Source of the DNA: Chlamydiota bacterium | GTDB taxonomy: Bacteria; Auribacterota; JACPWU01 | Assembly (NCBI GenBank): GCA_016196885.1 | Contig: JACPWU010000043.1 | Span: forward strand, 1-27,632 | Reading direction: 5' to 3' | Length of the DNA: 27,632 nt | Shown here: positions 1,631 to 27,632 of the stretch, one piece after another | Position numbering within the stretch: the first letter of the stretch is position 1 | Layout: each line of letters opens with the position of its first letter | The notes under the pieces: generated by a model | The model's input: the letters and a program-made list of their open reading frames with translations, nothing else | Told to the model about the DNA's origin: nothing | Databases searched by the model: none | Translations under genes and position numbers: made by a program

Positions 1631-1861
1631 CAGTCAACAGTCCACAGTCGATGGTCGATAGCTTTAAAGGAATTATTTATTAGGCATATGCACTCGATTC
1701 CCCTTTGTAGTCGCCCGATTCATCGGGCAAACCCACGCAAGGGGCACAGCCCCATGAATCGGGCGACTACAACTTCTTGCCATGGCGCTTGCTATCTAAG
1801 GGGCATCAAGTGCATATGCCAATTATTTATTTCTATGGACTGTGGACCGTAGACTATGGAC
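1631..1861. repeat. Inverted arrays of degenerate heptamers (CAGTCNA x4 at 1631-1662; CTRTGGA-type x4 at 1833-1861) flanking the MITE
   Basis: Left array: CAGTCAA CAGTCCA CAGTCGA TGGTCGA TAGC. Right array: CTATGGA CTGTGGA CCGTAGA CTATGGA C. The core GTCCACAGTC / GACTGTGGAC is perfectly complementary, and about 20 of 24 positions pair over the extended arms. Confidence 0.55.
1671..1831. mobile_element. 139-bp MITE-like palindromic element (1682-1820) flanked by an 11-bp direct duplication AATTATTTATT
   Basis: AATTATTTATT occurs at 1671-1681 and again at 1821-1831. The terminal inverted repeats are GGCATATGCACTCGATTCCCCTT (1683-1705) and AAGGGGCATCAAGTGCATATGCC (1798-1820), matching at 21/23 positions. 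An internal 22-bp hairpin is formed by GTAGTCGCCCGATTCATCGGGC (1707-1728) and GCCCCATGAATCGGGCGACTAC (1749-1770). The element has no coding capacity. Confidence 0.6.
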
Positions 1862-1884: not shown

Positions 1885-3039
1885 CTATCCCACTCTTCTT
1901 AATGTGTTCGAAATGGATAATTGGGCCGCATGAAAAGCGGGGACAAGACCGCTCAAGAGCCCAATCATCATGGCAATCGCAATGCCCACCGCAAGGGTTG
2001 CGGGATTCACCACAAAATAACTGAAAGGTCCCAGCCTCAAAGAAACCCCATAAAATGCAAAAAAGAAATAGGCCCCGAAAGAACCCAAGGTCCCGCCCAG
2101 AGAGGCGAGCGTCACAGATTCACTTAAAATGAGTGAAAGGACCAGGCGTCGCGTGAAACCCAAACTTTTGAGAACTGCAACCTCTCGAGAACGCTCCCGC
2201 ATAGACATGGCAATGGCGTTAGCTGTAATCGAAACACTGGAAATAATCACCAAAAAAGAAATGATGCGAATAATCCATTCAATCGGTCCAAAGGATGACA
2301 TAAAATCGCTGAAGGCCGCTTTCTCTGTAAGCGTCTCCGTTTGGACAGGGCGATTTTCAAACATTTTATCAATGGCAGAGCTGATGCGCGGGATCATGTC
2401 TCGACTGGCAATTTTTAAAGTGATGCTGTGGGCAATTCCAGGTTGTCCCAAGACCTCACTCAGATAATCGAAATGGAGTAAAATATTGTCGGCCGCAATT
2501 CCACTGGGAACCTCCCCTACAATTTTCACTTCCATCCGGGCATTCACATTCGCAGCATCAACAGTCACCATTTGCCCCACTTTCCAACCATACCGGTCCA
2601 TCACTTGCTTACCCACGAGGGCCACCGTTCTCTCTGTCTTTTTAAAAGCGTCTCGCTCGTCTTGAGGAATTTCTCGAAAATCCTTTCTCATCCAATCAAT
2701 TCCCTGCGGAACAATGGAGATTGTAAAAATCGGCTCCTCCCCCTCTTTCTTCGGTTGAACAATCACGAAAAGATTCGTGGAGAGATCTAAAACCCCCGGA
2801 ACTTTTCGAATTTCATCCACATAAGCCAAAGGAACCCCGCCATTCATAAAAGTGGAGTGTTTGTCCCTGACGACCAAAACGAGGCTTTGTTCAGATTCAT
2901 GAATGAAATTTTTCAAGGTGCTTAAAATACAATCGAGCGCACAAAAGAGAAAAAGAGAAATGGCAATATTGAGAAACGTGAGAAGACTTCTTTTTTTACT
3001 CCGAAAAATATTGCGAAGGATAAAGCGAATAAAGCGCAT
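1885..3039 (-). CDS. ABC transporter permease, FtsX/MacB-LolC type (second, non-identical copy)
   Basis: The ORF track starts at a TTG at 3051. I prefer the ATG at 3039 (MRFIRFILRNIFRSKKRS), which has a GAGG 7 nt upstream. The C-terminus carries an FtsX module (REVAVLKSLGFTRRLVL...). Confidence 0.85.
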   Translation of the reverse strand: MRFIRFILRNIFRSKKRSLLTFLNIAISLFLFCALDCILSTLKNFIHESEQSLVLVVRDKHSTFMNGGVPLAYVDEIRKVPGVLDLSTNLFVIVQPKKEGEEPIFTISIVPQGIDWMRKDFREIPQDERDAFKKTERTVALVGKQVMDRYGWKVGQMVTVDAANVNARMEVKIVGEVPSGIAADNILLHFDYLSEVLGQPGIAHSITLKIASRDMIPRISSAIDKMFENRPVQTETLTEKAAFSDFMSSFGPIEWIIRIISFLVIISSVSITANAIAMSMRERSREVAVLKSLGFTRRLVLSLILSESVTLASLGGTLGSFGAYFFFAFYGVSLRLGPFSYFVVNPATLAVGIAIAMMIGLLSGLVPAFHAAQLSISNTLRRVG

Positions 3040-3083
3040 TAAAAACCTCAACGTTCAGCGTACAAACCATCCATTGTCAATTC

Positions 3084-4962: not shown

Positions 4963-5083
4963 ACAGCGTACAGCGTACAGCGTTCAGCGGACAGCACTAG
5001 CGTACAGCGGACAGCGTTTAGCGTTCAGTAAAAATAAATCCACTCCTTATAAACTGTCCGCTGAACGCTGTACGCTGTACGCT
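4963..5083. repeat. Perfect 30-bp inverted repeat built from tandem ACAGCGT-type heptamers (hairpin/terminator after the epimerase gene)
   Basis: 4965-4994 AGCGTACAGCGTACAGCGTTCAGCGGACAG is the exact reverse complement of 5054-5083. The left side carries about 10 degenerate heptamers (4963-5031) against 4 on the right. The hairpin begins 3 nt after the stop codon at 5086. Confidence 0.85.
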
Positions 5084-5085
5084 AT

Positions 5086-6144: not shown

Positions 6145-9072
6145 TCAAGAGCTTTGTTTACAAATATCTTCCACATATTGATCCAAAAAAGCCAGGCGTT
6201 TCTTAATCCACGCCCGCATTTCTAGCACGGCACCCTCATGGCTCTCACCCGCCGGCAAAGGCCATTTTCTAAAATTTTCCGCGACCCGGTCGTGAATCCG
6301 AGCCTCCACATCATCCATTCTTTTCATCAGAGATTCTTCCAAAAGAGGCCCCTCCTTGAGTTCCTTCCATCGGTCACGCAAAGCCTCTTTATAACCGGGA
6401 AGCTCTCGCATCAACCGCTCGAACAAATGATCCGACAATATCCAATCCGAAGGACCCCCAAAAGTCTTATCGTAATCCCAAGGCACAATGAAAAATTTCT
6501 GATTCACTCCCTTGTCGCGACAAATAAAAAGATTGTGCTGAGGGCCATCCACATTGTAAGCAAAATTGATCAAAATCTGAAAATCCATTACATTCTCAAT
6601 GTCCATCAGCCCTTTCACCCGATGCTGAAATTCGTCTGTAGAAGCAAAACTCAAAAAACGAATAAATTCCTCATAAGGCCCCCAGTAGGCCTCATATTTT
6701 AAATCGGGTTCTTTTTGCTGGTAAGAATCTCTGCTTTCGTACTCAAAATTGGCATGCTTGCCCTTGGCCTTGTAAATCACACTGTGCGTTGAATCTTTTG
6801 AATGATAAGGCTTCAAACCTAGAACCGAAGCATTGACCTTCTCACAAATCTCATAAATTCCCTGATATTCTCCATTTAAAAAAATCTCGAGCAAGTGATG
6901 TTGGGGCGTATGTTCCGGATGTCCCTCTTTGGAAAAACTTCTAAACAAATCATAGGCCAATTGATTTTTCATAAAGGTGTGATCCACGTAACAAGACATC
7001 AGGATAAAATCAGTGGAGGGTTTGAAATTCCGATAGGTGAAAGGCGAGCGCAATCGAAGCTTGTAAGATTTTTTGGGATAATAAAGGGCTGTGTTTCCTC
7101 TCAACTTGATTTTTCCAGGGAGAAAAGGCGATTCCTTTGGGTCTAAATTCAAAAACTTGGCCAGGCAAGGAACGTACTGCCTGGAAAGGATGGGTCGGCT
7201 GGACAGAATTTGCAAAATGTCTAATTTTGATGAGGAAGGCAACACGATAAATCTCAGAGTTTTTACACCTTTCAGTTTTTCACAGGAAAGGTGAATCCGG
7301 ATCATGACTTCTTTGGATCCTCCATTCGTAGGTCTCAAAACCTTCCCCTCATGATTGATCACAGAAGGGTCGCTCGATTCAAACTCCAAATGGACGCCAT
7401 TCACCTCATCGAAAGAAAAATCTAAATTTTTAATAACGCCCTCTGCGCCAGGGTTGTCTCCCAAAAACATCTTTTCATTCAAACATTTTTCCACCCACTC
7501 GATCCGATGGAAAGGATCGTCTGGAATCTCTTCTCCCAACGCCTCAACAAGCTTCTTGCGATCCATGCTCACCCGATATAAGATCTCACGGCTGGGAACG
7601 GGTGAGGAGTGATCGCACAGGAAAAGAGGAACGTAGGTTTTGGCAAGATCATCATAGAGATGTAAAATTTCTTTCTTAAATGCGGGAATCCCTTTTAAAA
7701 AGGAAAGGATCTCCCAAGGCTCGTGTGAATCACCGGCATAACTGAAAAGTTCTTCATCTTGAAACTCATAAAGCCCTTGAAAAACACCATTCACCCAGAC
7801 ACCGCACATCTGGATTCCCAAGGGACTGCGATGATATTTTTTTCTCAAGGCCTCCTCCAAGAGAGGGCGTAAAATTCCATTTTCCTCTGGAGGAACAAAA
7901 ATGATGTTCCGCATCGAAAAGGGAGGGCGCCTTCCCAAAAAACGAATCACAAATGTCTTCTGACCTGTAGGATACATGCGTCCCACATCCCCTGCCAATT
8001 CAATCTGAGCCTTGTATAAATGATTCTCCGCTTCTATCCGAATGGCTCTGGATTTCGAAATTTTAGAGGGGATGATGCCATGTGTCATACTCCAATCATG
8101 GGATTGATTGAGGGCCTTTAAATCTTGCTTTGACAAAAAAAGGGAGAATCGCTTAAGAGAGGTCTTGTGAATGCGGCTTTCTGGTTGAAAGGGGTTGAGC
8201 AAATCCAATCCCTTCACAGTTTCCCAGACAATATTTCTTAAGGCCCGCCACATTTTGAGTTCAAAGACAAGCTGAGGTTTAAACCGCCACGAGAGCGATC
8301 GAGTCGCCTTCGCCTCTTGAAGCACCTCTTCAGGCTGTAAGGCCCGACTTCGAATCACCACCTCATCCAGAATAAAATGAGAGGAGTGACCTTGCTCGCA
8401 GCTCCCGAAAATCATTTCATCCGGGCGTTGAAAAATCTCAGAGACAGGTCGTGACGATTTCAACACGCCATCTTCCCATAAAGAGGCCTGATGCCGTTCT
8501 AGATCCACCACGCAAGCCACATGCGTGAAGGCATGCCGATGAGATTGAAAGGGAGTACAAAGAATTTGCTCTTCCTGACCCCGCACCGGTACTCTGAAAA
8601 AAATCTTTCCCCCTTCAAACCAAACATCATGGAGAGATCCTTGCCAGTTGGAAATGAAGAGCTGCGGTTTTTTTAAATTTAAAATCTTCACCCAAAAAGA
8701 AAGGCTGTAAGATCCCTGCAGTTGTGAGAAGGTAAACCTTGTTTGAAGAAAATTGTTCAAACGTCCATAAAACCAGCGTGCCTGGCCGTATTTCCCACGG
8801 ACAGACAGGATGCCTCGATTCACCGCTTTCTCATAGCCGATAGAATCAATCACCAGAGAATCGTCAAAGGACCAGCAGGCTGCGACTCCCGATTCTTTCA
8901 AATGACGGCTGATTTTGGTTTGGGCATGGCGAATTTTTTTATCTAAAATTTTGAAGAGGGAACCGCTGGTTTGATAGAAGAGAACGATCAGAAACAAAAG
9001 AACAAAAAATTTCAGCCATCGCCGTGGCTCAACAATTCTAGATCTTAAGCGAATAGAATGAAGAATGGACAT
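6145..9072 (-). CDS. Membrane-anchored multidomain CotH-family atypical kinase (TM + LamG-like + degenerate half-CotH + Ig-like + full CotH)
   Basis: TM FFVLLFLIVLFYQ. LamG-like block at about aa 60-245 (SYSLSFWVKI...). CotH hallmarks are KIKLRGNTALYYPKKSYKLRL, LNGEYQGIYEICEKV and HNLFICRD...FFIVPWDYDKTFG. The gene starts 23 nt downstream of the DUF4956 gene. Confidence 0.8.
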   Translation of the reverse strand: MSILHSIRLRSRIVEPRRWLKFFVLLFLIVLFYQTSGSLFKILDKKIRHAQTKISRHLKESGVAACWSFDDSLVIDSIGYEKAVNRGILSVRGKYGQARWFYGRLNNFLQTRFTFSQLQGSYSLSFWVKILNLKKPQLFISNWQGSLHDVWFEGGKIFFRVPVRGQEEQILCTPFQSHRHAFTHVACVVDLERHQASLWEDGVLKSSRPVSEIFQRPDEMIFGSCEQGHSSHFILDEVVIRSRALQPEEVLQEAKATRSLSWRFKPQLVFELKMWRALRNIVWETVKGLDLLNPFQPESRIHKTSLKRFSLFLSKQDLKALNQSHDWSMTHGIIPSKISKSRAIRIEAENHLYKAQIELAGDVGRMYPTGQKTFVIRFLGRRPPFSMRNIIFVPPEENGILRPLLEEALRKKYHRSPLGIQMCGVWVNGVFQGLYEFQDEELFSYAGDSHEPWEILSFLKGIPAFKKEILHLYDDLAKTYVPLFLCDHSSPVPSREILYRVSMDRKKLVEALGEEIPDDPFHRIEWVEKCLNEKMFLGDNPGAEGVIKNLDFSFDEVNGVHLEFESSDPSVINHEGKVLRPTNGGSKEVMIRIHLSCEKLKGVKTLRFIVLPSSSKLDILQILSSRPILSRQYVPCLAKFLNLDPKESPFLPGKIKLRGNTALYYPKKSYKLRLRSPFTYRNFKPSTDFILMSCYVDHTFMKNQLAYDLFRSFSKEGHPEHTPQHHLLEIFLNGEYQGIYEICEKVNASVLGLKPYHSKDSTHSVIYKAKGKHANFEYESRDSYQQKEPDLKYEAYWGPYEEFIRFLSFASTDEFQHRVKGLMDIENVMDFQILINFAYNVDGPQHNLFICRDKGVNQKFFIVPWDYDKTFGGPSDWILSDHLFERLMRELPGYKEALRDRWKELKEGPLLEESLMKRMDDVEARIHDRVAENFRKWPLPAGESHEGAVLEMRAWIKKRLAFLDQYVEDICKQSS

Positions 9073-21959: not shown

Positions 21960-22264
21960 AAAAAGCGAATATTTTCTTCGATGGCCGGCCAGCGGGAATT
22001 CTGACCGAAGCAAACGGGCATTATATTTTTGCATACAGAAAAGATTACAAAGGCCCTTCGATCTCGCGGACCCTTCCACGTGAAAAAGAACGATTTGAAT
22101 TTGAGGGATTTCCTCTCTTCTTTGATGGACTTCTTCCCGAAGGCGTGAACCTCGAAGCCTTTTTAAGGAAAACCAAAATTGACCGTAGGGATTATTTCAG
22201 CCAGATTTTAGCAGTGGGACATGATCTTGTCGGCGCTGTGACGGTAGAGGAATGGAATGAGTAA
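21956..22264 (+). CDS. hipS: HipS-like protein (stand-alone HipA N-terminal subdomain)
   Basis: IFFDGRPAGILTE...FAY and FFDGLLPEG...AVGHDLVGAVTV match the HipA N-terminal (couple_hipA) domain, here encoded as a separate 102-aa ORF. Confidence 0.8.
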   Translation: MKKANIFFDGRPAGILTEANGHYIFAYRKDYKGPSISRTLPREKERFEFEGFPLFFDGLLPEGVNLEAFLRKTKIDRRDYFSQILAVGHDLVGAVTVEEWNE

Positions 22265-23201
22265 AATAAATATTTGCGCTATTACTTACGGCGATATTCC
22301 CTCAGGTGAGCACTATTCTCTGCAAGGATTAAAACTCCTTTCACCTCAACTCAAGAAACTTGAGCCGCTTCATTTGACGCTCGAAGAACAGCGTGAGGAA
22401 GCAGCGGCGCGTGCAGGAAAAATGTCGATTCAAGGGGTACAGGTTAAATTAAGCGCCAGGCTTGCCGTTTCGAGAGGCCAATTCAAGATTGTGGATCGAG
22501 GCGGTACTTATATTTTGAAACCTGCCCCAGCGGGTTATCGTGAAGTCCCGGAGAATGAAGATTTAACTATGCACCTTGCGAGAGCGGCGGGTATTCAAGT
22601 GCCCGTGCATGGATTGGTCTATGCCAAGGATGGAACACGAACCTATTTCATCAAACGGTTTGACCGCAGAAAAAGCAAGAAACTCTATCTTGAGGATTTT
22701 GGCCAGCTTCTTGGATTGGCGCGAGAAGTTAAATACGACACCTCGATGGAAGAATTTGCTGGGGCGGTTCAAAGATATGCCACGTTTCCTGCGCTTGAAT
22801 GCCGGGAGTTTTTTCTTCGGACGATTTTCTGCTTTCTCACGGGCAATGAGGATATGCACGCCAAAAATTTCTCTCTTTTCTCAGAAGATAATCATGTCTT
22901 CAAACTCGCCCCGGCCTATGACTTTTTAAATAGCACGATTGTCATGTCTGGGAAATCGAGGGAAGAACTTGCGGTGCCGCTCGCAGGGAAAAAATCAAAA
23001 TTGACACGTAACGATCTCATAAAATACTTTGGGCAAGAACGATTGGGTTTAGCTGAAAGAACCATCCAAAGCTGCCTCAAGCAGTTGCAAGACGCATTCC
23101 CAGAATGGGAGCGTCTCGTCCAGCGAAGTTTTTTAAGTGAGAAAATGAGAAAGGCATATTGGGATTTATTGACCGAGCGACGGGAGAGGTTGAAACTATG
23201 A
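22257..23201 (+). CDS. hipT: HipT-like Ser/Thr kinase toxin (HipA C-terminal kinase core)
   Basis: Gly-rich loop GKMSIQGVQVKLS (S57-I58-Q59), YILKP lysine, catalytic loop GNEDMHAKNFSL (D199/H201/K203/N204) and Mg-binding APAYDFLNS (D222). It overlaps hipS by 8 nt. Confidence 0.85.
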   Translation: MSKINICAITYGDIPSGEHYSLQGLKLLSPQLKKLEPLHLTLEEQREEAAARAGKMSIQGVQVKLSARLAVSRGQFKIVDRGGTYILKPAPAGYREVPENEDLTMHLARAAGIQVPVHGLVYAKDGTRTYFIKRFDRRKSKKLYLEDFGQLLGLAREVKYDTSMEEFAGAVQRYATFPALECREFFLRTIFCFLTGNEDMHAKNFSLFSEDNHVFKLAPAYDFLNSTIVMSGKSREELAVPLAGKKSKLTRNDLIKYFGQERLGLAERTIQSCLKQLQDAFPEWERLVQRSFLSEKMRKAYWDLLTERRERLKL

Positions 23202-25292
23202 AGAATGATCCTCAGCCCGAGAACCCTCATCAAATTGAATTTCTGAAACGGCAACGCTGACTTTACGCCCATCAGAACGCTTCCCTGCTCCTGGACTCAC
23301 ATCCAGGAAAACTGTATTGAGCCCTTTCTCAAAAATCAAAGGATTTAACACAATCTCTTTCACTTTTCCAGGTTCTACTTCAACTTCTGTTAAAACATGA
23401 TCACCTAGCCTGACCTTGACCTGTCTTCTTTGCTCAAAAGAAGTGAGCAAAAACTTCAACCTACATGTCAAGTGATCGTGACTTTTATTATAAAACACAA
23501 AACCTCCACTCCCCGCAAACCATTGCCAGGAATACTCCCCCAATCCCATTTCCGGAAGATAGGTATTTCCCGTAACCCATATCAAATCCTTGGGTTCAGC
23601 CATCACTTCAAAAATAGATGCATCCGGAAAATCCTGAACCAACTTCAGACCCAGGGCATTCATCATTCTGTGATATACATTCTTTCGATAATGCTCCTTA
23701 TGAACCACCGCATACTTCACCCCCAAGGTCGCCAAACGCGCCTCTACTTCTTCCTCCCAAAGATTTTGGTTTGAATTTAAGAGCCACGACGCCGGTTTCA
23801 TTTCAGGAGACCCATTCATTAAACGCTTTCCGTGAAAGCGCTGATTCGAGCGATATTGGTAGCTGCGTTCATCCATGCTTCGAAAGAGGGGATATTCGGC
23901 CACAATAAAATCACCCCGTTGTCTCTCTAGCCACTGATAAACGAGAGGGGCTGTCGAGACATCCACGTTGCGAACAGGTGGAACAAGGGTGTATTCACAG
24001 GCAAGAGCCCCGGAGAAGAAGATAAACCAAAGAATTTTACTTTTCTTTCGTGCCCTCTTCTTTAAAAATTCAGAAAGTCCAAAACCCGCCAAGACAGCCA
24101 CACAAAGAGAAACAAAAAAACCTGCGCGGCTATAATACCGAAACATGGGGAAAAACCGATAAAGCAAAGCACTCGGAGCAGGGAAGGCCCAACCTCCCCA
24201 ACCCACTTCTGGCGACAAAGAAAAAATCATCATCACCACCGCACAAAAAGTCATCGCTGAAATCACAAAAGACTTTTCCGGGTCGCATTTTTTTCTTTGA
24301 CGCCACCCTGCCACGAGACCATAAAGGGCCAAGAGGGAGGGGACCGCCCCCAGATAAAGGGTTCGATCCGAGAGGTGCCGACCGCCCAATCGATGAACCA
24401 CTCTTTGCGCCCACGAACCCAAAAATGGATTTAACTCGCTGGGAATAAAATAATCCCAAATCCTCGCGCTGTATTTGGAAACATCTCCGAATGAGCGCAG
24501 GAGACCCTCTTGTTGAGCCAAAGGCGAAACAGACGGGACATGAAGAAAGATGCTTGAAATAGTTTCATACGTAAAAGGAAGCATGATCAAGGCAGCTGTA
24601 AAAAAAATCCCAAACACACCGCAAAGCTTAGGCAAAACAAAGCCTTTACCTCTTTCAAATAAAATAAACCTCTGCAAGAGAAAGATCAGACTAAAGAAAG
24701 ATGTAAAATACCCTAAATACGGATCGGAGAGCCAAATCAAAGAAAAAAACAAACTGGTTAGGAGCGCCCTTAAAAATGAAGGCCCCTCCAAGAACCGCCA
24801 AAGGAATAAAATATAAAGCGGGATCCACTCCACGTGGGTGTAACTCAGATGTCCCGCCAAAGCTTGACAAATCAGATTTGGAGAAAAGCCGTAAATCACC
24901 CCCCCAAAAATAGCTCCTAAGGCACAACCCGTGACATTGCGCACCAGGACAAACATCGCAAAAGCTGAAAAAGAAATTCCCAAAAGAGTGAAAAGATTAT
25001 AAGCAACCCCCTCATGAAAGAATCGAGTTAAAACCAAAACCAGTCCATTAAAAAAAGGCATGATCTTTTCGATGCCAAACTCAGTCTCGACACCAAAAGG
25101 TGATCCCAAAAAAGGATTAAAACCGGGTTGGATACCTAGGGTGAATAAACTTTTACCCTTCCAAAATTCGTGGAGAACACCCAGGGTGTCTCCCGACCAA
25201 TCGCCCAAGCCAGGAATATGAGTTAAGATATTAGAAGGATGGGGAAAAATATAAATCCATGCCAACAAAAAAAATAAGATGAAGATATTCAA
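23196..25292 (-). CDS. Large polytopic membrane protein with soluble C-terminal domain (possible GT-C/YfhO-like envelope glycosyltransferase)
   Basis: About 12 hydrophobic helices over ~430 aa, then a ~260-aa hydrophilic domain. The TTG start at 25292 forms a TTGA overlap with the upstream gene's stop codon. The family was not recognised with certainty. Confidence 0.55.
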   Translation of the reverse strand: MNIFILFFLLAWIYIFPHPSNILTHIPGLGDWSGDTLGVLHEFWKGKSLFTLGIQPGFNPFLGSPFGVETEFGIEKIMPFFNGLVLVLTRFFHEGVAYNLFTLLGISFSAFAMFVLVRNVTGCALGAIFGGVIYGFSPNLICQALAGHLSYTHVEWIPLYILFLWRFLEGPSFLRALLTSLFFSLIWLSDPYLGYFTSFFSLIFLLQRFILFERGKGFVLPKLCGVFGIFFTAALIMLPFTYETISSIFLHVPSVSPLAQQEGLLRSFGDVSKYSARIWDYFIPSELNPFLGSWAQRVVHRLGGRHLSDRTLYLGAVPSLLALYGLVAGWRQRKKCDPEKSFVISAMTFCAVVMMIFSLSPEVGWGGWAFPAPSALLYRFFPMFRYYSRAGFFVSLCVAVLAGFGLSEFLKKRARKKSKILWFIFFSGALACEYTLVPPVRNVDVSTAPLVYQWLERQRGDFIVAEYPLFRSMDERSYQYRSNQRFHGKRLMNGSPEMKPASWLLNSNQNLWEEEVEARLATLGVKYAVVHKEHYRKNVYHRMMNALGLKLVQDFPDASIFEVMAEPKDLIWVTGNTYLPEMGLGEYSWQWFAGSGGFVFYNKSHDHLTCRLKFLLTSFEQRRQVKVRLGDHVLTEVEVEPGKVKEIVLNPLIFEKGLNTVFLDVSPGAGKRSDGRKVSVAVSEIQFDEGSRAEDHSS

Positions 25293-26151: not shown

Positions 26152-27632
26152 TTAATGAACTGACCTGTAAGAAGGTTGCCTTCTTCTCATCCAACAAAAG
26201 CAACAGTAAACCCAACAACCGAATAAACTGATCCCCGAAATGATCATCCCCACTTCAAAAAACCTTTGCGGCTGAAATTCAAGAATGATTCTGAACGATT
26301 GATTCTGACTAACCTTCGAAGGATCAACCCACCATCCATTGGCATATCCATTGACCACAAAATGATCTTTCACTTTCACACGTCGCCCCCGATCTTTCCA
26401 AAAATTCCACAAAGCAGATCTTGATTCTTTAAAAGGCTCGTCTTTATAGATCGCGGGAGAGATTTCCGATTTTTTTACTTCCCTGACATAGGCCCTCCAT
26501 TGTCTATGGTAACTCTCGTTAAATACCAGAACAAACGGAGCCTTTGCCCCTTTAACATCAACCGCATAGCGCGTCGGATTAATCTTTTTAAACTCAAGAC
26601 TCGGTAACTCAGCCTCCTCTTCTTCAATCTTAGGATTTATCATGAACCAATCCAAATTAAGTTTTTCATTCTCAACAAATTTAAAAAGATGATCCCCCTC
26701 CTTCATCTGCAAGCGATCCAGGCGAAATTCAAAACATCCATCCCCAATCCGATCGACCTCCTTGGAACTGATTTCTAGGGGATCTTCATCCAAAAAAAGA
26801 AAATTCATGGGGTCTTTTTCACAACTCCAGTCCGCCCATTCCCTCTTGTATTGCGAAAGACGATACGCCTTTATTTGATATCGCCAGCTACTCCATTCTT
26901 GATCTGGTGCCATCAACTCCAGCCAATGCAACTCTCCTTCCAAACCCCCTTCCAAATTTATGTTCACAGCACCTCTTTGCCCACTCAAAGGAATAACACG
27001 AAAATTCTTTTCCAACACCTCCTCTTTTTCCCCAAAGCTTAACCCCATCACAATCTTAATAAAATCCTTCTCATAACCCTCTAAAACGATATCTAGATCT
27101 TTCTTGCCTAACACAGGTAACTCCCCCTGACTCACCCCAAAAGAAAACTCCTCATTTTGAGAAATATCGGACATGGATTCCACTGAAATAAGTTTTCCTT
27201 CCCTCTCATAGACATAGGAATCCTCTAACCCGCATTTCTCATCAGATTTCGTAGCGAGACCGCCAAGTCCACCTTGGATGCGAGGAAGACGACCGAGGCC
27301 ATGCGAGGCATACTTTACAGTATGTTGAGCGTGGCCGACCGAGTCTGACGACGCGGACGAGGCGGAATTGGCGGTCGTAGTAGAAATGTGATGAGAAATG
27401 CGGGTTAAACCTGATCTCTCCTGATTAACTTGAATGGCAGAAAGACGGTCCAACATCCCCATATCATACAACTCAAAAACATACTCCCCCCTCTTCCCCT
27501 TGGAACAATCCACTCCCCAAATCTTATGCGGTAAAATCTCTAACGAGGTGAGATAATAATGCTTCTCGCCAGGTAACACCTCTCGTGCCTTTCTCAAAAG
27601 GTCTACGATGAATGTATCCTTCTTGGCCGAAG
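26152..27632 (-). CDS. C-terminally TM-anchored envelope protein, probably 5'-truncated by the window edge
   Basis: The reading frame stays open from the TTG at 27597 to position 27632. The C-terminus (FVLVFNESYHRQWRAYV...DHFVVNGYANGWWVDP...ILEFQPQRFFEVGMIISGISLF) resembles the terminal beta-sandwich plus last TM of YfhO/AftD-type membrane glycosyltransferases. Confidence 0.55.
   Translation of the reverse strand, partial: SAKKDTFIVDLLRKAREVLPGEKHYYLTSLEILPHKIWGVDCSKGKRGEYVFELYDMGMLDRLSAIQVNQERSGLTRISHHISTTTANSASSASSDSVGHAQHTVKYASHGLGRLPRIQGGLGGLATKSDEKCGLEDSYVYEREGKLISVESMSDISQNEEFSFGVSQGELPVLGKKDLDIVLEGYEKDFIKIVMGLSFGEKEEVLEKNFRVIPLSGQRGAVNINLEGGLEGELHWLELMAPDQEWSSWRYQIKAYRLSQYKREWADWSCEKDPMNFLFLDEDPLEISSKEVDRIGDGCFEFRLDRLQMKEGDHLFKFVENEKLNLDWFMINPKIEEEEAELPSLEFKKINPTRYAVDVKGAKAPFVLVFNESYHRQWRAYVREVKKSEISPAIYKDEPFKESRSALWNFWKDRGRRVKVKDHFVVNGYANGWWVDPSKVSQNQSFRIILEFQPQRFFEVGMIISGISLFGCWVYCCFCWMRRRQPSYRSVH
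27226..27407. mobile_element. GC-rich 182-bp palindromic element embedded in frame inside a CDS (RPE-like)
   Basis: It has perfect 19-bp terminal inverted repeats: TAACCCGCATTTCTCATCA (27226-27244) and TGATGAGAAATGCGGGTTA (27389-27407). The interior is markedly more GC-rich than the flanks and is an imperfect palindrome centred on CATACTttacAGTATG (27309-27324). It translates without stops as LTRISHHISTTTANSASSASSDSVGHAQHTVKYASHGLGRLPRIQGGLGGLATKSDEKCGL. Confidence 0.6.

Follow-up and report, generated by a model that had tools for sequence, protein, structure and literature searches.

Why should a protein-coding gene carry, in frame and free of stop codons, a long and GC-rich palindrome? The question is raised by a stretch of 27,632 nucleotides (hereafter, the window) that comprises positions 1 to 27,632 of contig JACPWU010000043.1 in assembly GCA_016196885.1, which derives from a Chlamydiota bacterium. 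Close to one end of the window, a 182-bp palindromic element (27226..27407, minus strand) lies within HYZ67_07450, a partial gene that runs off the end of the window (26152..27632, minus strand). [quoted passage not shown] Our conclusion is that it belongs to a new MITE family of environmental Chlamydiota whose in-frame behavior resembles that of the Rickettsia palindromic elements (RPEs). The small size, terminal inverted repeats and dispersed copies of MITEs are all observed, and what is missing is a demonstrated autonomous partner.

The 182 bp include the TA dinucleotides at either end. The outermost 19 nucleotides, TAACCCGCATTTCTCATCA at 27226-27244 and TGATGAGAAATGCGGGTTA at 27389-27407, are exact reverse complements, as the first-pass annotation of the window had stated, and the repeats extend further, to 25-nucleotide arms with 96% complementarity. 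In plus-strand coordinates these arms are TAACCCGCATTTCTCATCAGATTTC on the left (27226..27250) and GAAATGTGATGAGAAATGCGGGTTA on the right (27383..27407). Even with three mismatches allowed, the 19-nucleotide terminus has only two matches in the window, with a chance expectation of 0.01. The two halves had also been described as imperfectly self-complementary, and this description holds: a second, inner pair of arms (27258-27274 and 27360-27376) matches at 88%, and CATACTTTACAGTATG (27309-27324) forms the apex. The predicted fold of the element has a free energy of -96.5 kcal/mol as RNA (z = -9.9) and -56.7 kcal/mol as DNA (z = -10.4), and in neither case was any of 200 shuffled sequences as stable. 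The higher GC content that had been noticed in the interior is likewise found, with 54% for the element and 45% for the window; local 100-nucleotide windows reach 53-59%, and the flanks have 36-47%.

The host frame, on the minus strand, is open across the whole element, which is translated as LTRISHHISTTTANSASSASSDSVGHAQHTVKYASHGLGRLPRIQGGLGGLATKSDEKCGL. The span 27227-27406 measures 180 nucleotides, or 60 codons, in agreement with the earlier proposal that an insertion of this size would preserve the frame. The inserted codons correspond to T76-L135 of the 492-residue host fragment (27226..27405 on the minus strand or, equivalently, 27229-27408), and they encode a Ser/Ala/Gly-rich loop that is predicted to be disordered. 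The insert starts at a TTA leucine codon (27408-27406 on the coding strand). The host reading frame had previously been given a start at a TTG codon at 27597, which is wrong: the frame is open to the end of the window, and the gene is annotated as partial, at a contig end.

Copies of the element are found in many other places. A first protein search with the host returned eight unrelated proteins that match 12-26% of the query at 47-89% identity, and the part that they have in common is the insert peptide. They are a CBM9 protein, a Fic protein, a cobalamin-binding protein, a CPBP protease, MiaA, a GT4-like protein, an LplA-like ligase and a nucleotidyltransferase/methyltransferase. An exhaustive phmmer search of 1.84 billion representative proteins found 16 proteins with the insert peptide. 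It added two hosts of approximately 6,000 residues, each found in two sibling metagenome-assembled genomes (MAGs), an IscA-type Fe-S protein whose length minus the insert is 109 residues, which is normal for its family, and several short open reading frames (ORFs) that contain little beyond the element itself. This search gave the useful census, as a word-indexed search with a peptide profile found only three short ORFs and missed the known hosts. Counting the window host, in-frame copies are present in 12 unrelated proteins, all in one orientation and phase.

As DNA, these copies share 86-97% identity with that of the window, and homology ends sharply at the termini. Four sibling Chlamydiae MAGs and two Logan assemblies contain them, inside unrelated genes or in intergenic DNA. 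The first-pass annotation would have been contradicted if no other copy existed anywhere in the genome, and the copies argue in its favor on this point. Further copies near the host genes were met without having been selected, including an intergenic one (locus L009, 3861-4037) and one at a contig end (L008, 28-204). Intergenic copies occur in both orientations. In one sibling, GCA_016178005.1, seven copies are present within the 46 kb sampled. A derivative of 100 bp (L007, 14993-15092) is internally deleted but retains both terminal repeats. The Fic and nucleotidyltransferase hosts each have a second accession in the MBI3265xxx range, as has HYZ67_00615, and this shared range implies that the genome of the window itself probably holds at least four in-frame copies. 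A 20-mer from the conserved arm has no exact match in species-representative genomes; in metagenome contigs it has three, none of which matches beyond the 20-mer.

Several annotated "hypothetical proteins" of 74-118 residues (P0034-P0036 and P0160-P0162) consist almost entirely of translated element. One of them, of 102 residues (P0035; L008, 2864-3172), is underlain by a copy at 2900-3075 of the same locus. These ORFs are probably spurious gene calls that result from the open frame of the element.

The sources are all metagenome assemblies, and the host gene of the window is at a contig end, so a repeat mis-spliced into genes by assembly or binning has to be considered. This is almost certainly not the explanation. 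The insertion in MiaA is present in both GCA_016196915.1 and GCA_016178055.1, those in the Fic, nucleotidyltransferase and giant proteins are each found in two MAGs, and that in the LplA-like ligase occurs in two separate Logan read-set assemblies. The copies also differ from one another by 3-14% and so are not a single collapsed repeat, and reading frames are kept across both junctions.

If the segment is an insertion, relatives of the hosts should lack it, and alignment with orthologues had been proposed as a check. Four relatives of the window host (P0002, a paralogue in the same MAG, and P0003, P0005 and P0016) are without the segment at the exact point. Six MiaA orthologues, including a protein from a Chlamydiae MAG, lack exactly 60 residues, and the gap opens directly behind a conserved leucine (QWGL|). 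Among the best 120 MiaA homologues, only the insert-bearing protein has 372 residues; the others have approximately 270-351, except for one multidomain protein of 414. In alignments, solved structures of MiaA match the query over residues 14-184 and 257-354, and for the stretch between these the solved chain offers almost nothing equivalent. Together with the 12 unrelated in-frame hosts, the precise absence in relatives supports the earlier reading of the segment as a palindromic element inserted in frame.

Structure prediction suggests how the hosts accommodate the insertion. In an AlphaFold model of the window host, residues 67-134 have predicted local distance difference test (pLDDT) values of 28-32 and almost no secondary structure, whereas the flanking domains are folded. 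In a model of MiaA, made with an alignment of 82 sequences, the mean pLDDT is 84; the insert (residues 194-252) is below 50, and most flanking blocks are at 92-98. In both models the insert thus behaves as a predicted disordered loop that bulges from an intact fold.

A different account of the same proteins would make the peptide the selected entity, as a linker or domain that is spread by recombination, with palindromy being incidental. All 12 hosts do carry one peptide frame, and among six intragenic copies mean dN (nonsynonymous divergence) is 0.118 and mean dS (synonymous divergence) is 0.191, a mean ratio of approximately 0.6, which is less than 1. However, the 52 variable columns among these copies are spread evenly over codon positions 1, 2 and 3 (19, 15 and 18), and in 14 of 15 pairs the copies are more alike as nucleotides than as amino acids. 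Moreover, stops interrupt every frame of the intergenic copies, one copy has lost part of its interior, homology breaks off exactly at the terminal repeats, the peptide belongs to no Pfam family and is predicted to be disordered, and homologues in other phyla (see below) retain the DNA hairpin but not the peptide. A protein module is therefore scarcely credible. By these sequence comparisons, the insert peptide is instead tolerated and not under constraint at the protein level.

The uniform orientation and phase of the genic copies can be explained by the element's own reading frames. Each intragenic copy is open in the same frame, and the surrounding ORF continues for 122-521 codons upstream, where the contig permits, and for 12-357 downstream. 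In two full-length intergenic copies, every frame is closed. In the consensus of the Chlamydiae family, the frame that begins from the flanking YTA is free of stops, and the other five frames have one to three stops each. Insertions in the other five combinations of orientation and phase would truncate the host protein and presumably be lost, which would leave genic copies that all look alike.

The flanks of the element hold clues to how it moves. In the window, the left flank is CTAA (27225..27228) and the right flank is TTAA (27405..27408), both on the plus strand, and they are a candidate target-site duplication, either of TA only or of all four bases. To place these in context, the tetranucleotides beside the CCYGC termini were surveyed for 43 nonredundant copies from all families of the element (other families are described below). 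YTAR occurs on the left in 33 copies and on the right in 35, or at approximately 80% of ends. Ten pairs of flanks are palindromic (CTAG/CTAG or TTAA/TTAA), eight are direct and nonpalindromic (CTAA/CTAA or TTAG/TTAG), and one is inverted only. Direct repeats of a nonpalindromic word are expected from a target-site duplication but not from an extension of the inverted repeat, and they point to transposition. Copies in Acidobacteriota fit a 4-bp YTAR duplication; those in Chlamydiae fit duplication of the TA, the terminal bases of the element being complementary (A...T or G...C) and the outer bases free. Under either model, the net gain is 180 bp. A 3-bp (YTA) duplication also fits many junctions, yet implies that the element has asymmetric ends.

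These preferences are familiar from known transposases. IS5 creates 4-bp YTAR duplications (PMC5009759), and IS630 targets the TA of CTAG sites, which becomes duplicated (PMC2170065). The target preference of IS630/Tc1-mariner and IS5 elements, and of the Stowaway-like and Tourist-like MITEs derived from them, thus matches the YTAR flanks (PMC2170065, PMC5009759). An element of approximately 176-178 bp would enter a YTAR (CTAG-like) site and duplicate either TA or the whole tetranucleotide. In the window, the target would have been a YTA leucine codon, with the element landing in the sense orientation. This orientation and phase give the only one of six frames that is free of stops, so the gene would stay open and encode 60 extra residues, which the protein would accommodate as a disordered loop; in the other five combinations the protein would be cut short, and such insertions are presumably purged. 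Mobilization in trans would be by a DDE transposase, either one like those of IS630/Tc1-mariner, with duplication of TA, or one like that of IS5, with duplication of a 4-bp YTAR.

At 176-178 bp, the element is within the size of MITEs (less than approximately 400 bp) and, like them, has no transposase gene, its sole open frame encoding a low-complexity peptide without a Pfam hit. Some observations weigh against a MITE. An autonomous relative was not found: within approximately 800 kb of sampled loci, all pairs of terminal repeats are 100-230 bp apart and none is 0.6-3 kb apart. Unlike the case of IS630 and IS5, neither a transposase gene nor a full-length insertion sequence with these terminal repeats was found in the sampled loci or in searches of plasmids, phages, viral contigs and E. 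coli genomes. No allele with an empty site was recovered at the DNA level, so the duplication could be of 2 or 4 bp. Sequences of host proteins from which the insert had been excised have no exact match in the protein collection, but the look-up demands 100% identity and is therefore uninformative. All source genomes are metagenome assembled, apart from the two Logan read-set assemblies, and we infer that the insert is translated. Finally, conservation of the interior (48-65% between consensuses) and asymmetry of the arms exceed what a transposase that recognizes only terminal repeats would need.

This last point emerges from a wider family. Species-representative genomes were scanned for both core terminal repeats at the right spacing. 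Most hits are due to chance in AT-rich genomes, but the scan also revealed real elements with the extended terminus CTAGCCYGCATTTCTCATCA in CBDEGM01, an Acidobacteriota MAG whose sampled loci contain some 20 or more copies, in four MAGs of Bryobacterales, which are likewise Acidobacteriota, and in the unclassified bacterium CAYGIT01. Profile matches that are weaker yet significant were obtained for an Eisenbacteria MAG (E = 2e-15) and for a Chromatiaceae MAG of the Gammaproteobacteria (E = 8e-18). The family consensuses are homologous over their full length, with 58-71% identity overall and 48-65% in the interior, and the terminal core CCYGCATTTCTCATCA is kept in every family. The apical stem-loop of the window copy (27309..27324, CATACTttacAGTATG) matches a block that is conserved across phyla, CTCAAC-RTACTG-loop-AGTAYGCC. 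The stop-free sense frame is common to the Chlamydiae, Bryobacterales and CAYGIT01 consensuses, or three of the four families; clear copies within genes were seen only in the Chlamydiae family. The GC content of the element (54-56%) exceeds that of the Chlamydiae hosts (41-47%) and is nearer to that of GC-rich lineages, which would fit acquisition by Chlamydiae through horizontal transfer.

Some elements vary around this theme. Size variants of 213-228 bp in Acidobacteriota (L022, 6298-6511; L061, 3187-3399 and 4799-5026) have extra small hairpin modules that are symmetric in both arms. In Bryobacterales, a partial copy (L080, 7548-7626; model positions 2-80) abuts a full copy (7624-7808) in what looks like a nested or tandem arrangement. 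The same terminal repeats also enclose interiors that fall outside the family profile in an Omnitrophica locus (L029, 4041-4225), a Gammaproteobacteria MAG (L017, 6463-6620) and an Acidobacteria MAG (L112, 6561-6727). There may therefore be several MITE families that share one transposase specificity.

The hairpin is maintained across phyla. In an alignment across the phyla, pairing extends to 95% of cells, versus 29-44% in controls in which the partner was slid; in helix 6, to which the apical stem-loop belongs, the figure is 99%. Double compensatory changes are present in 19 of 37 pairs (2-6 in slid controls), and the covariation score is 0.328 (at most 0.088 in slid controls). A profile hidden Markov model (HMM) built from 25 copies of the four families scores one orientation far higher than the other, because the families have an asymmetric architecture in common. 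The copy in the window scores 169.6 bits on the minus strand versus 44.4 bits on the plus strand; its standard orientation is thus on the minus strand, the one that carries the sense of the host gene.

Such a pattern could mean that a structured, single-stranded nucleic acid is the selected function, whether an RNA gene, a cis-acting RNA or a DNA hairpin used in mobilization, and that insertion in frame is a by-product. Pairing, compensatory changes and covariation, all above those of controls, are in keeping with this idea, as are the unpaired blocks and arm asymmetries that are conserved between phyla and the strongly one-oriented HMM. We nevertheless regard it as unlikely. Nearly all pairs are of the Watson-Crick type; counted by hand, about 8 cells are G-U and roughly 27 are A-C or C-A. 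This is unlike selection on a sense-strand RNA and argues for symmetry at the level of DNA. The direct repeats that flank the element indicate transposition of DNA, no promoter-like or terminator-like site is found inside or around the window copy, and the intergenic copies are in both orientations. At gathering score, the window matches nothing in Rfam 15, and no Rfam family, hammerhead included, matches at E <= 1 over the window copy or over copies in four loci of other families. The hammerhead ribozyme was considered specifically, as the terminal repeat contains CUGAUGAG...GAAA, but the element has no stem II.

A related proposal joins transposition and structure. The elements would form a cross-phylum superfamily in which the whole hairpin of approximately 180 nucleotides, including its unpaired blocks and arm asymmetry, is selected as an obligatory intermediate (single-stranded DNA or RNA) or as a guide for its own mobilization. 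The stop-free frame of three of the four consensuses could then be a selected "stealth" property that promotes persistence in genes. This proposal is doubtful. If true, however, mobilization through a hairpin intermediate would be a mechanism that has not been described for MITEs with terminal inverted repeats.

Hairpins maintained by covariation over their full length might also recall elements that are moved as single-stranded DNA by a Y1 (HUH) transposase, such as REP-associated tyrosine transposase (RAYT), namely repetitive extragenic palindromic (REP) sequences, bacterial interspersed mosaic elements (BIMEs) or IS200/IS605-type elements. A separate REP-like repeat with a GTAG head is indeed present in these genomes (window positions 1705-1772, and several sites in L007 and L008). 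However, IS200/IS605 elements are not known to create a target duplication, and the element has true terminal inverted repeats and direct YTAR flanks. REP superfamilies are palindromes of 20-40 bp that are tagged with GTAG or CGTC at one end (PMC3733652), whereas the element is approximately 180 bp long and has neither tag, with CTAG/YTAR flanks and a CCYGC terminus instead. A REP or IS200-type origin is accordingly very improbable, and a MITE mobilized by a DDE transposase remains the preferred reading.

Among known systems, the closest in behavior are RPEs, as the first-pass annotation had recognized. Small palindromic repeats in frame are the hallmark of RPEs, but its statement that they are rare elsewhere needs qualification, as they are not confined to Rickettsia: intragenic enterobacterial repetitive intergenic consensus (ERIC) sequences, QMITE1 of Coxiella and others are also known (PMC10969869, PMC5896051). 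Like the element, RPEs are short palindromes (approximately 100-180 bp) found in frame in many unrelated genes of an intracellular-type lineage, with a peptide that is tolerated by the fold (PMC10969869). The element differs in that it occurs in groundwater MAGs of Chlamydiota and has many intergenic copies, homologues in other phyla and YTAR flanks; the likeness to RPEs drawn here is one of behavior.

ERIC sequences are conserved across distant genera and insert at TA. ERIC sequences, also called intergenic repeat units (IRUs), and the ERIC-like sequences of Yersinia are full-length imperfect palindromes of similar size, and ERIC is occasionally intragenic (PMC10969869). However, a blastn search found no similarity to the element in 5,426 Escherichia coli genomes (28 Gb), which according to the literature carry ERIC, and the element spans phyla, whereas conservation of ERIC is within one class. 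Correia elements (CREE/NEMIS) of Neisseria are nonautonomous, measure 100-155 bp, have terminal inverted repeats of approximately 26 bp, duplicate TA, and contain promoters and a site for IHF; to our knowledge, their transposase has never been found. In this comparison, which is by description only, the window copy differs in having no promoter-like site. The review of small repeats that was consulted reports no in-frame Correia family.

QMITE1 of Coxiella burnetii is a MITE in an intracellular bacterium that overlaps ORFs and yields small annotated "proteins" made of the element (PMC5896051), for which P0034-P0036 are a parallel. It differs in its size (300-400 bp), in its direct repeats of 2-3 nucleotides with variable sequence, and in its basic peptides. 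We found no published description of the element. The retrieved literature on such repeats mentions neither Chlamydiae nor this terminal repeat, and in the full texts searched the terminal-repeat string occurs in only two papers, with unrelated titles, on Plasmodium var genes and a human circular RNA (circRNA).

The host ORF is identical to the partial protein HYZ67_07450 of a "Chlamydiae bacterium" MAG. It is predicted to be a beta-rich protein with a long C-terminal helix (residues 454-484), which is hydrophobic, and it comes from a family that has no Pfam hit of its own. Relatives have approximately 440-860 residues, and more distant homologues of approximately 800 residues bear a GT-C_AftD domain. 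The neighborhood encodes a PMT_2-type glycosyltransferase, a DegT aminotransferase and large proteins without a Pfam hit. The label "envelope protein" in the first-pass annotation is a plausible inference: the predicted C-terminal helix and the neighboring glycosylation-type membrane-protein genes are consistent with it. The first 46 residues of the host fragment (27490-27632) are identical to those of the paralogue HYZ67_06270 (P0002), although the two proteins are only 33% identical overall. Both genes are partial and both lie at contig ends, and the shared residues suggest a recent duplication or a gene-conversion tract that broke the assembly. An ORF for a HipA-like kinase (22257-23201; HipA_C, E = 7e-46) is also located between the genes for glycosylation-type membrane proteins.

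The window contains other repeats. A nested palindrome occupies an intergenic position at 1670-1833, with inner arms at 1705-1728 and 1749-1772 and an inner unit, TTGTAGTCGCCCGATTCATCGGGC..., that has a REP-like GTAG head. The GTAG-headed repeat recurs in sibling GCA_016178005.1, at four or five sites in L007 and at one in L008, and it is a second repeat family, unrelated to the element. Inverted arrays of heptamers (CAGCGTA, CAGCGGA and CAGCGTT) at 4963-5084 form a perfect 30-nucleotide inverted repeat in an intergenic gap, with a fold of -69.7 kcal/mol, and a related stretch is at 319-351. An inverted repeat at 24210-24305 was considered as an instance of the same phenomenon as the element and rejected. 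It has arms of 17 nucleotides at 94% and lies in an ORF for a membrane protein of 698 residues; its fold is weak (-23.6 kcal/mol), the sampled sequence contains no second copy of it, and it is probably due to chance.

The element provides a well-supported second case of the phenomenon known from Rickettsia, in a different phylum of mostly host-associated bacteria. A selfish palindromic repeat colonizes genes, including essential ones (miaA and an iscA-type gene), without destroying them. For annotation this is a warning, as such repeats yield spurious small "hypothetical proteins" and inflate the lengths of proteins in MAGs. Conservation of the whole hairpin across phyla is an additional, unexplained feature, and this conservation, with its compensatory upkeep, raises the question of what the mobility of MITEs needs beyond terminal repeats. 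For the proteins of these bacteria, the insertions are a natural experiment that marks sites at which disordered stretches of 60 residues are tolerated, and they are a possible source of new loops and linkers.

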